A stretch of 63,094 nt of DNA, counting the filler, from Candidatus Zapsychrus exili (GTDB lineage: Bacteria; Omnitrophota; Gorgyraeia; Zapsychrales; Zapsychraceae), in NCBI GenBank assembly GCA_030765585.1. It is 5 parts of 5 records of this genome, joined end to end, with 100 filler letters (N's around TTAATTAATTAA, not from the genome) between each part and the next. Parts side by side here need not be neighbours in the genome. Positions count along the whole stretch, not along the records: positions 42,786 to 49,926 come from JAVCCJ010000103.1; positions 50,027 to 63,094 come from JAVCCJ010000044.1; 3 more parts are not named here. One strand, 5' to 3'. Positions 44,359 to 52,334 of this stretch are shown piece by piece. The first letter of the stretch is position 1; each line of letters begins with the position of its first letter. The notes under the pieces were generated by a model. That model saw only the letters and a program-made list of their open reading frames with translations, had not been told where the DNA came from and did not search any database. The position numbers were made by a program, and so were the translations under genes.

Positions 44359-47067
44359 ATGGCTACTTACAGAAATAACAATATACTAAGAAAAATCTTA
44401 TCTTGTACAATAATATTTGCTTTATTTATTTGCAATATTGGACTTGTAAGTCCTTCTTTTGCGCAAACTGCTTTAAATGTAGCAAGTACAGAAGCAATCT
44501 TGCCTTTAAGCCCTCAATTTAATCCTATTTTAATCAAAGGAATAACTCCGAATGTGGATAATCCTCTAGAGTTTAATTTTATCATTGATACTGGCGATAT
44601 AGATGTAAAAGGCGAGGCTCTTGAAAGCGAATCAATGAAATTAGTTAAATATTTTCTCTCTGCCTTAACCGTTCCTCAAGAAGATTTGTGGGTTAACCTT
44701 ACGCCAGGCGAAGAAGACAGGATAGTTTCAGAGAAATTGGGTCAGACTGATATGGGTCGCGATCTTTTGAGTCAAGATTATATTTTAAAGCAATTATCAG
44801 CTTCTTTGTTTTATCCAAAGTCAGAAATAGGAAAGAAATTTTGGGATAGAATCTACAGCGAAGTAAACAGCAAATATGGTTCTGTGGACATTCCAATAGA
44901 TACTTTAAGTAAGGTATGGATTGTGCCAGAAAATGCAACTGTATATGAACATAATGGCTCTGCATTTGTAGTTGAATCGCATTTAAAGGTAATACTAGAA
45001 GATGAATACTTAAATGGCAATCAAGTTAATATTGTTAAAAATAAATTATCAGTTCAAATTATTAAAGAAATTATTATCCCAGAGATAGAAAATCAAGTAA
45101 ATGTGGGAAAGAGTTTTGCAAAGCTTCGTCAAATATATAATTCTATGATTTTAGCAACTTGGTATAAACAAAAATTAAAAGAATCAATTAAAGTTTATGG
45201 TAGAAAATCTTTACTTGGTGAAATTTATGTAGATAAGAATAAGATTAAAGGCATTGATATAGAAGACAAAGATATTGCAAAGAAAATATATAATCAGTAT
45301 TTAGAGTCTTTTAGACGAGGTGCTTATAATTATATCTCAGAGGAGTACGATTCGGAGACTAAAGAAGTTGTTCCGCGCAAATATTTCTCAGGTGGGGTTG
45401 TCGGTGTTAAAGAAGTCAGGGGAATAGCAGATGAAGCAATGTTGACGGGCGCACAAAAAGATATACTTCCAGATGGAAATAAAGAATTTTCAATAACAGT
45501 TCGTTTAGCTGAAGAAAAAGAGCAAAAAGACAATGCAATGGTGGGTATTTTTGGTAGCAGTAAAAAACAAGATTCTGACGATCCAAATAGGGTAAAAATA
45601 ACTACTAAAGATTTGGAAGAAGCAGAAGATATAATAAGAGTTGAAAGTCCAAAACAAGTTATGCAATTGATGGATAGTGAGCTTAAAAAGATTAATTACA
45701 CAGGAGAAATGGCAGGCATATTTGGAAATTTTTCTAATAAAAATTTGGTATTTGATGGGGATATAGCATATATGAATGAAATTGTCACTTCTTCAAAAGT
45801 GCCAAATATAGCTATTTATAGTGAGGGTTTTGATGAAATAGGAATATACGAACATGATGAATTTTTTGGGGTAGGGTTTGCAGTAAATGAGGCCACAGGC
45901 GAGTTAGGTATATTTACAGCACCATTTAGTAAAATTCAAGATTTTATAATATTTGATAAAAATAGAGTTTTGTTTGTTCCTGATAATGACAAACTTATAA
46001 TAGATCAGTCTTGGGGGTATTTATTACCTAAAAAAGCAAGAGATGAGCTTTTTGATGGAAAAGTGCCATCGCAGATTACAAAAGAAGATATAAAGGAAGT
46101 TGTGTTAAAAAGTAAGATAACAAGAAAAGCGCAAGGTTTTTCTGGGGTGGAGTTCTCAAAAAGGTCAGATACGAAAATAATAGTTTTAGAAATTCCTTTA
46201 AAATTTGGAATAATTTCAACTCCTAAACAATATAGATGGTATAAAGGTTTCTTTTTAAATAGTTTGTCAAATAATTTTGCTAAGGCAGGAGAGTTGAATT
46301 TGACATCCACTATACATACTCATTCAAGATATAAGATTAAAAATTTAATTGAAGATCCTATTCTTAGCAAGATAGTGCCTAGGCACTACAATGAAAATGA
46401 ATTTTTATTATTTAATAGTCCAGGAGATATTTTAAAATTATATGCTATGTATGATAATGTTGCGAAGCTATCAAAGTATTATTATGGTGATAGCGATAAG
46501 ATAGAGGCAACTACGCCATACTCTATGGTATACGCTCATGATAAAGAAAGACCAATAGGATTGGGAACTTTTATGATGGATGTGCTTTCAGATGAAGAAT
46601 ATGATAAGTTTGAAGATATAACTATAGAAGCAGAAAGAGAGTTTCGCAATACAACAGGACATTACGATGTTGATAAGGTGAAACTCTTTCTTGATTGGAT
46701 TAGCAACCCAAAATTTTCAGTATTTAATAATCTCCCAATTGGAATTCGTGATTTTGCCATGACTTCATCAATAGTGAACAATATGGCTTCAAGTTTGGAT
46801 TTATATAAATTTTCTGTTGAATTGTTAAATAAGAATAAAAAAGTTGGTGGCATAGACTTAAATGCTAATTTGCTTGATTTAGATATAAAAATAGATAAAA
46901 ATGGCGTTCCTTTGCCTTTAAATAAACAAAATATTGATAATATTAGTAATATTGATGGTTTTTTTCCTATTATTATAAATATTGAAATGATTACTCCCTT
47001 GCATATACCTGCTTTACTCGGTTTCTCTGCCAATAAAGAGAATAGCGATTCCTCAAAAATTACCTAA
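44359..47067 (+). CDS. Large modular exported protein, paralog 1 (cargo with HTH...SxxD motif)
   Basis: Signal peptide ending SFAQ; N-domain shared with paralog 2; C-terminal VGGIDLN module. Confidence 0.85.
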   Translation: MATYRNNNILRKILSCTIIFALFICNIGLVSPSFAQTALNVASTEAILPLSPQFNPILIKGITPNVDNPLEFNFIIDTGDIDVKGEALESESMKLVKYFLSALTVPQEDLWVNLTPGEEDRIVSEKLGQTDMGRDLLSQDYILKQLSASLFYPKSEIGKKFWDRIYSEVNSKYGSVDIPIDTLSKVWIVPENATVYEHNGSAFVVESHLKVILEDEYLNGNQVNIVKNKLSVQIIKEIIIPEIENQVNVGKSFAKLRQIYNSMILATWYKQKLKESIKVYGRKSLLGEIYVDKNKIKGIDIEDKDIAKKIYNQYLESFRRGAYNYISEEYDSETKEVVPRKYFSGGVVGVKEVRGIADEAMLTGAQKDILPDGNKEFSITVRLAEEKEQKDNAMVGIFGSSKKQDSDDPNRVKITTKDLEEAEDIIRVESPKQVMQLMDSELKKINYTGEMAGIFGNFSNKNLVFDGDIAYMNEIVTSSKVPNIAIYSEGFDEIGIYEHDEFFGVGFAVNEATGELGIFTAPFSKIQDFIIFDKNRVLFVPDNDKLIIDQSWGYLLPKKARDELFDGKVPSQITKEDIKEVVLKSKITRKAQGFSGVEFSKRSDTKIIVLEIPLKFGIISTPKQYRWYKGFFLNSLSNNFAKAGELNLTSTIHTHSRYKIKNLIEDPILSKIVPRHYNENEFLLFNSPGDILKLYAMYDNVAKLSKYYYGDSDKIEATTPYSMVYAHDKERPIGLGTFMMDVLSDEEYDKFEDITIEAEREFRNTTGHYDVDKVKLFLDWISNPKFSVFNNLPIGIRDFAMTSSIVNNMASSLDLYKFSVELLNKNKKVGGIDLNANLLDLDIKIDKNGVPLPLNKQNIDNISNIDGFFPIIINIEMITPLHIPALLGFSANKENSDSSKIT

Positions 47068-52334: not shown

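Follow-up and report, generated by a model that had tools for sequence, protein, structure and literature searches.

The window analysed here, 63,094 nucleotides (nt) joined from five parts of the genome of Candidatus Zapsychrus exili (phylum Omnitrophota; GCA_030765585.1), carries three genes, p1, p2 and p3 (paralogs 1 to 3), in which conserved modules accompany unrelated middle segments (Table 1). Positions are those of the whole joined stretch; p1 and p2 lie on contig C113 (JAVCCJ010000103.1) and p3 on contig C114 (JAVCCJ010000044.1). The conserved ends are referred to below as the N-half and C-half of a chassis, the middles as cargo, and the recurring four-residue motif D-x-A-M as the linker. 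An earlier note on this DNA had proposed an export system of this architecture, and all the motifs it quoted were present in the open reading frames (ORFs), with YFSGG where it had been placed. The N-domains of p1 and p2 shared 49% identity over 372 amino acids (aa; tblastn, E 5e-111) behind N-termini that were signal-like by hydropathy and an [AG]-Q site, the GGIDLN module was common to all three genes, and the three middles were unrelated (best BLASTP E 2.5). Similarity had been said to end at YFSGG; the cargo middles indeed shared no significant similarity, but a beta-strand about 30-40 aa further on (p2 residues 374-387) belongs to the predicted chassis, and D-x-A-M linkers reappear at both cargo ends. 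An array of three genes is not supported. The frame of p3 was already open at base 50028, the first codon of C114, behind the artificial spacer, and p3 is therefore the 5'-truncated start of a separate contig; an ATG at 50067 lies inside this open frame and hence establishes no start, so that adjacency to p2 and absence of an N-domain are unsupported. No terminal overlap of at least 20 nt joined C113 to C114, and the contigs from two DNA sequencing runs covered C113 in short pieces, p3 placement and cargo swaps lying beyond their reach.

Table 1 Features of the three paralogs and their surroundings in the window
Feature	Position	Strand	Remarks
p1	44359..47067	+	902 aa: signal peptide, N-half of chassis, one cargo module, C-half
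p1 predicted Sec signal peptide, SFA-Q end	44359..44463	+	predicted from hydropathy and conserved [AG]Q site
p1 N-half of chassis	44479..45528	+	includes YFSGG (45382-45396) and next beta-strand, the latter predicted from the p2 models; outer limits approximate
p1 D-E-A-M linker	45430..45441	+	within post-YFSGG segment
p1 D-N-A-M linker	45529..45540	+	cargo start
p1 cargo	45538..46758	+	407 aa
p1 D-F-A-M linker	46750..46761	+	cargo end
p1 C-half of chassis, VGGIDLN...GFFPIII	46843..47030	+	GGIDLN at 46846; end approximate
c-di-GMP-I (GEMM-I)-like aptamer, p2 leader	47283..47403	+	95 nt before p2; enlarged P2 loop
p2	47498..49858	+	786 aa; N-half to about 48660; YFSGG 48527-48541
p2 predicted signal peptide	47498-47584	+	
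p2 linkers	D-E-A-L 48560, D-E-A-M 48698, D-K-A-M 49589	+	
p2 cargo	48707..49597	+	disordered stretch and helical bundle
p2 C-half	from GGIDLN 49619	+	
Artificial contig spacer, N run	49927..50026		non-genomic; C113 ends 49926, C114 starts 50027
p3	50028..52334	+	5'-truncated frame at start of C114
p3 D-G-A-M linker	52089	+	
p3 C-half	from GGIDLN 52131	+	

Iterated profiles applied to the 6,417 six-frame ORFs of the genome gave 17 N-domain and 16 C-module matches, with both halves in 9 ORFs. ORFs with the C-module only were confined to contig starts or positions behind a frame break; a paralog on C13, near the contig end, had an N-half and no C-half, and the remaining incomplete members run off contigs. 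Two family genes were split by frameshifts (C73 and C119) and three carried single in-frame stops (TGA in C83, TAA in C39, TAG in C67). Stop-codon recoding was rejected because three different stops were used, and the five broken genes suggest fast turnover or assembly error. Open frames at the start of C43 and the end of C80, which overlap by six residues (below the 20-nt threshold), are probably one gene. The family genes were scattered among housekeeping genes.

Beyond this genome the N-domain formed 7,853 clusters at 50% identity. Of 301 genomes of the phylum, 69 yielded the family; within the same order it turned up in 26 of the other 28. First-look candidates numbered as many as 78 in one genome; they are not copy numbers and come from a single query that misses divergent forms. 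Lengths reached 2,991 aa in this genome and 5,312 aa among the top relatives. With thousands of members, the family takes up at least 17 loci in this 2-Mb genome and, in relatives, candidate loci by the tens. Both genome and phylum strongly support a chassis that stays constant around variable internal cargo. The shared N- and C-modules are real, and the large family that they define fits no tested family. Contrary to what had been suggested, it is not strictly lineage-specific, as it has actinomycete and planctomycete relatives. Among 26 related loci 17 were titled Omnitrophota, 8 came from small metagenome-assembled genomes titled Planctomycetales or Planctomycetia, and one from Actinoplanes. 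A variable loop of the N-domain near residues 220-245 (paralogs on C34, C43, C25 and C73, and the relative G338) held in-frame insertions resembling translated palindromic repeats (VIAR..AIS..EIAS and GSRQ..LPTANSQL types).

When p2 residues 33-392 and 704-772 were submitted to complex prediction, the two halves scored 0.84 against 0.01 for the best control, with about 250 contacts, in line with the co-folding for which a test had been proposed. The mark used was reached by 116 of 157 solved complexes and 2 of 215 mismatches, counts that hold roughly with our own alignment; contact agreement between runs was 89% or more, the partner had a pLDDT of 66 or higher, and no solved look-alike was found. 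In the p2 model, I710, D711 and L712 contact W108, V109, N110, D137, W184 and I185, all of them invariant columns except L712 and D711, and residues 742-755 pair with 374-387. The halves are thus predicted to fold into one domain, the GGIDL strand lying in an invariant W-V-N / D / W-I pocket; with such docking the cargo chain would form a closed loop and the domain would be complete only in the full-length chain. This predicted split fold would explain the conservation of both ends. Pfam and NCBIfam gave nothing for p1 and p2 and a sub-threshold P8 match only for p3. The model of an unsplit actinomycete homologue (pLDDT 83, pTM 0.80) had no PDB match at E 0.001 (Foldseek), and VIA-align against 48,161 chains gave at best Z 3.6 (latherin), several of the rows being TULIP-like (Z 2.6-3.6). 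Such scores do not suffice to name a fold, and lack of a PDB fold match does not prove a new one. The N-domain therefore matched no characterised family in Pfam, NCBIfam or PDB folds, only the uncharacterised DUF1598 (PF07643).

Kinship with DUF1598 appeared in a predicted-structure TM-score of 0.56 over 268 residues, a profile-profile probability of 89.6% (E 1.9e-6, 139 columns), matches of the DUF1598 profile to the actinomycete homologues (E 1e-7), and a signal-like N-terminus with two GGV motifs. DUF1598 proteins differ in being unsplit, present in 1-3 copies per genome and ending in WWWD; the direct Omnitrophota-DUF1598 profile match was not significant (E 0.16), and no family member matched the Pfam model above its gathering score. 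The chassis core is distantly related to DUF1598 at superfamily level, less securely for the Omnitrophota members alone. One further profile match (A3 versus A2) was set aside as circular, since the A2 profile includes Omnitrophota rows. No DUF1598 was found in five metagenome-assembled genomes titled Planctomycetales/Planctomycetia, in a search in which no control rang, and no constant secretion operon was seen at DUF1598 neighbourhoods; a sigma-54 activator was divergent from one DUF1598 paralog type at 2 of 2 loci. The longest planctomycete paralog type (L226-L229) has an N-terminal segment ADFDSL..LI..TV.PDTWE..GG, presumably resembling planctomycete secretin N-domains.

The Actinoplanes homologue of the chassis (31% identity, E 2e-31, tblastn) led to 46 actinomycete loci among 57 in a scan with its domain, 45 of which were translated, one short partial match being left out. 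Their order is signal, PD-(D/E)xK-like domain, GPGG[VI]DF strand, core, second GGVDF, Pro/Thr linker and sortase motif; among 67 homologues the same N-terminal domain occurred in 66, the D..N..E.K pattern in 55 and the LxxT[GA] anchor in 65, and databases annotate these LPXTG/LAETG-anchored proteins as hypothetical or sortase-dependent only. With YFSGG aligned to the second GGVDF and the pocket residues invariant in both groups, the first GGVDF is most likely the counterpart of GGIDL in Omnitrophota. From these alignments the actinomycete domain is an unsplit and probably circularly permuted chassis; the best C-module profile matches to these proteins, which include the first GGVDF strand, were not significant (E 1.1 or worse). 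In both groups the cargo lies directly 5' of the GG[VI]D[FL] strand, whereas the actinomycete proteins have one constant cargo type, a sortase anchor and frequently a divergent immunity-like gene. Of these loci (L043:2545-5383 and 44 further ones, L044-L087), 19 of 45 had a divergent ORF with the motifs WDF..SLDRLE..WYLGEV, for which there was no Pfam match. The labels nuclease and immunity come from motif resemblance, and anchored protein and divergent ORF are possibly an undescribed toxin-immunity system. Since strains with these homologues can be cultivated and are open to genetics, the chassis can be tested in them.

Across 23 family ORFs (32,273 aa) the D-x-A-M motif occurred 81 times, while 200 shuffles averaged 2.6 and never exceeded 7; other ORFs of at least 200 aa held 42 copies in 518,246 aa. 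It was followed by V/L/I/M/T and then A/T/S/V/G, and x was K, Q, N or E in 66 of the 81. None of 51 copies in 13 annotated ORFs fell inside a best Pfam stretch, the only stretches counted, where 11.5 would be expected (p about 4e-7, assuming independence). When words in the middles of 143 relatives were counted without bias, D.AM (253 versus 20.6 expected) and SSP[VI] came first, S-S-P-[VIL] being the linker of other lineages. Among 150 relatives, counting proteins with at least two copies, 54 used D-x-A-M only, 21 SSP only, 1 both and 74 neither (p 5e-4). In G338 a duplication of the p1-type cargo runs exactly from linker to linker. Synonymous codon variation and serines encoded by both TCN and AGY place the constraint at the peptide level, the second of these codon tests covering 11 SSP and 18 D-x-A-M sites. 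On the same grounds we disfavour the idea that the motif marks recombination of the DNA or an internal start.

A 9,937-aa giant at C24:37451-67261 (L255, L256) with C39 peptidase, OmpA, SecA-like/DEAD, M23 and SLT domains holds six D-x-A-M motifs, five of them clustered at residues 5720-6263, which suggests that it shares the linker grammar; its C39 peptidase makes it a candidate, and only that, for the processing enzyme. It bears on an explanation that we hold to be improbable, namely that after export the proteins undergo processing or modification and serve the periplasm or vesicles of the producer itself, with the linker as a site for a chaperone, a modifying enzyme (e.g. O-glycosylation of SSP) or an export motor. 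A peptide-level, positional motif, Ser acceptors in the SSP dialect and the giant's combination of linkers with SecA-like/DEAD and C39 domains would agree with it, but most D-x-A-M cores lack Ser/Thr, as the residues at x indicate, and nucleotide-dependent enzymes in a periplasm would be left unexplained.

Export was judged from hydropathy and the conserved [AG]-Q site. A basic-hydrophobic leader ending in [AG]-Q was present in 16 of 16 paralogs with full-length N-termini and in 116 of 134 relatives, and 132 of 150 relatives had no internal transmembrane (TM)-like segment. The 2.04-Mb genome contained 8 secretin matches in 7 genes and 10 type II secretion/type IV pilus ATPase matches, one secretin gene lying directly 3' of the C67 paralog. 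Type IX secretion cargo has a signal peptide, a Gln start and a C-terminal sorting domain, and the family is similar in its Sec signal followed by Gln and in its conserved C-terminal module; however, by prediction this module forms one half of a split domain rather than a stand-alone Ig-like sorting domain, and it had no Pfam or NCBIfam sorting-domain match. PorP/SprF (PF11751), in a search without a positive control, and glutaminyl cyclase families were not found in the genome. That the hydrophobic stretch is instead a membrane anchor, holding a tethered multi-enzyme in the producer's cytoplasm, is very unlikely in our estimation. The cytoplasmic cargo types would suit this, as would the cytoplasm-facing reading that has been retained for many giants lacking a signal peptide (Nielsen and Lui 2026, 10.64898/2026.06.07.730766); the leaders, with basic n-region, single h-region and cleavage-like site, argue against it, as do signal-like N-termini in the relatives from two other phyla, stand-alone cytoplasmic copies of cargo enzymes and a strong purge of Cys. 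Cys made up 0.14% of family residues versus 1.14% in other long ORFs and 0.04% in the middles of relatives; p2 and p3 had none, and the only two in p1 lie in the signal.

Pfam matches at E 0.005 or better were obtained for 33 of 69 cargo segments of at least 80 aa (23 below 1e-4). Two paralogs carried UDP-glucose pyrophosphorylase, PFK, PGI, phosphoglucomutase (behind the TGA), two GAPDH, PGK, enolase and class II aldolase, and others PPDK-like parts, guanylate kinase, SAM methyltransferases, GNAT, HATPase, NUDIX and HTH arrays. Where effectors and adhesins had been expected, the cargo was mostly enzymes of cytosol type and unassigned segments rather than evident toxins or adhesins. The stand-alone genomic GAPDH, PGK, enolase, PFK, PGI, PGM, PPDK and GMK were only 25-36% identical to the cargo copies, which makes the cargo an old, separate set; cargo GAPDH and PGI exceeded NCBIfam equivalog cut-offs, which beside such divergent stand-alone copies speaks for a foreign destination, and both cargo GAPDH copies retained the catalytic Cys but lack the non-catalytic one (SCTTNA versus SCTTNC in the stand-alone gene). 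The two glycolysis paralogs (C80:14983-23955 and C83:1-9519; L027, L028) mostly cover the route from UDP-glucose or glucose-1-phosphate to phosphoenolpyruvate, their annotated segments lacking only triose-phosphate isomerase and phosphoglycerate mutase; the relative L236 has mutase-like cargo by eye.

In the window, the p1 cargo had no match in Pfam, NCBIfam, PADLOC or PDB and no usable Atlas match; its HxH...SPGD motif (46315-46323 onward), conserved in G338, presumably resembles a JAB/MPN metal site. The positional counterpart of p1 in G338 carries the same cargo at 30-31% identity, tandemly duplicated, so that the claim of swappable middles stands for genome and phylum, where cargo varies, and no swap is evident at this locus. 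The helical-bundle cargo of p2 (residues 444-680) had low to moderate pLDDT, and a search with its model matched only generic four-helix bundles. For p3 a weak VWA_2 match (E 0.0013, below cut-off) and a DISGS MIDAS-like motif (50814-50828) were noted, and its cargo was found in 0 of 60 relatives. PADLOC and PDB sequence searches were empty.

It is scarcely probable that these proteins form an ordinary polymorphic toxin family directed at bacteria, with toxin tips and immunity genes. The actinomycete relatives look like toxin-immunity loci and the p1 cargo has the presumed JAB-like motif, and such toxins share with this family a constant trafficking-type domain with variable cargo. Here, however, the cargo is internal and largely metabolic, a conserved module rather than a toxin tip stands at the C-terminus (at most 62 aa from the protein end in 113 of the best 150 relatives), and, as had been noted, no immunity-like ORF of at least 80 aa followed the window genes, nor did constant neighbours or immunity-like ORFs of at least 130 aa recur at the 18 loci of the genome's paralogs; immunity-like ORFs stood only beside actinomycete homologues.

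The main rival, which we rate as rather unlikely, is an uncleaved display scaffold on the producer's surface or in its periplasm, in which a tethered multi-enzyme loop would use leaked prey metabolites and the linkers would be flexible joints. Both cargo ends fixed in one predicted domain would make a good tether, the actinomycete homologues are wall-anchored, most of glycolysis in order-like arrays in two paralogs suits a metabolon, and the VWA-like and helical-bundle cargoes of p3 and p2 would also fit. A flexible joint, on the other hand, needs no strict four-residue motif in two exclusive dialects, HTH arrays, SAM methyltransferases, GNATs and histidine-kinase ATPases have few extracytoplasmic substrates, and GAPDH, PFK, PGI and enolase, which are normally oligomers, would be awkward in a closed chain.

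The closest working analogy is the MARTX toxins, in which conserved N- and C-regions enclose a variable effector chain and the ends are reported to be sufficient for delivery (Kim, Gavin and Satchell 2015, PMC4453568). In both, conserved ends flank a variable chain of central domains. The present family differs in having no glycine-rich repeat regions, its ends being modelled as a compact alpha/beta domain that is predicted to co-fold, no constant cysteine protease domain (no such Pfam match in 23 ORFs), a Sec-type signal instead of C-terminal RTX-type export, an explicit recurring linker, metabolic cargo and a microbial context. We favour, with belief and doubt about evenly balanced, a Sec-exported, MARTX-like polyprotein delivery chassis. 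The signal-like N-terminus, the N-half of about 350 aa, the linker-joined cargo and the C-half of about 60 aa would be exported via Sec; the assembled clasp would serve as a sorting or delivery handle, for which a type II/IV secretin route is plausible given the seven secretin genes; the chain may then be cut at the linkers, likely as D-x-A|M, giving modules with natural-looking Met starts. An attached host or prey cell would receive, in its cytoplasm, the modules that need ATP, NAD, SAM, acetyl-CoA or DNA, and its sugar-phosphate metabolism and signalling would be re-routed by them rather than the cell simply being killed.

Several observations weigh against this delivery model. No processing enzyme for the linkers and no membrane-penetrating or pore domain was identified, and no Cys/His/Ser catalytic set was found among the invariant chassis residues. 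As for the co-occurring secretion or peptidase genes that were to be sought, neither kind provides a constant neighbour. The linkers are not universal, 74 of 150 relatives having fewer than two strict linkers of either type; they lay within 30 aa before GGID in 55 of 111 and within 70 aa after YFSGG in 72 of 143, and one linker-bounded segment comprises two GAPDH domains, several others likewise two domains. The Ala codon of the linker was GCR in 69 of 81 cases versus 305 of 538 before other Met, which makes some DNA-level copying possible. No Pfam match was obtained for 36 of the 69 cargo segments, none matched a known toxin family, and glycolytic cargo was a minority, nine enzyme segments matching in 6 of 150 relatives. 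The actinomycete nuclease-like and immunity-like proteins had no match in Pfam, NCBIfam, PADLOC or PDB, and 11 of the 19 loci with the divergent ORF had seeded its profile.

A wider version, possible though on balance doubtful, holds that the clasp is a hitherto unrecognised delivery domain of three phyla, split in Omnitrophota in such a way that any string of genes could be looped in. Cut at D-x-A|M or SSP, the exported loops would equip the host's cytoplasm with entire pathways, a second glycolysis among them, and the sugar reserves of the host would become ATP and C3 products for the ultra-small parasite attached to it, while the unsplit form of Streptomyces and Micromonospora would deliver a nuclease.

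Omnitrophota are widespread, almost uncultured and probably host-dependent, and their long multi-enzyme proteins are an open puzzle, for which this family offers candidate cut sites and a definable chassis. The lack of known cleavage points has been named as the obstacle (West-Roberts 2023, 10.1101/2023.11.21.568195). The Archaeovorin giants described there and by Nielsen and Lui share methyltransferase, NUDIX, sugar-metabolism and kinase cargo with the family, but are 10-30+ kaa long, with many TM helices and SecA-like domains, as opposed to 0.5-5 kaa and essentially no TM segments here, where many dispersed paralogs use a fixed two-part chassis. The main text of neither paper mentions the chassis or linker, and that of Nielsen and Lui has no 'motif', 'cleav', 'polyprotein', 'MARTX' or 'linker'. 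No published description of the chassis, DUF1598 or the actinomycete proteins was found in what was mostly open literature, supplements (with possible member lists) being outside its scope; within the reach of that search the family seems not to have been described in print, and by analogy it appears to work most like MARTX. The N/C co-folding prediction, the unsplit actinomycete homologues, the remote DUF1598 kinship and a riboswitch before p2 are additions of this analysis.

The aptamer in the p2 leader scored E 9.4e-4 and 29.7 bits, and 33.6 bits against a gathering score of 35 for RF01051, penalised for its insertion. In G338 a p1-like gene is likewise followed by a second family gene with a clear aptamer before it (E 3.5e-11, 55.5 bits versus 59 for RF03167), and the cargoes of the two second genes did not align. 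The G at the equivalent of Vc2 G20 suggests cyclic di-GMP (c-di-GMP) rather than cGAMP. These sequence features make it probable that c-di-GMP switches p2 along with type IV pilins, which would tie one family member to pilin regulation. Minimum free energy folding of the region (z -0.19) was uninformative and a promoter scan gave chance level. Four c-di-GMP-I riboswitches above cut-off were present elsewhere in the genome (C39:34182, C48:59971, C14:187 and C34:18376), two preceding type IV pilin-like genes and two small secreted proteins.

Among the other genes of the window, p3 was followed by a CheD-like deamidase with degenerate motifs (52536-53078; Pfam E 6.6e-6) and then by an EF-G-like GTPase and a receiver domain (53153-55108). 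Positions 2644-4874 held a gene pair, glutathione synthetase-like and glutamate-cysteine ligase-like by eye, and 8315-10024 a secreted protein of tandem PKD-like repeats with paired Cys in each repeat, as opposed to the Cys-free chassis family. A higher-GC secreted protein was located at 15812-17443, near the end of C108, and its flanking sequence recurs at the start of C48.

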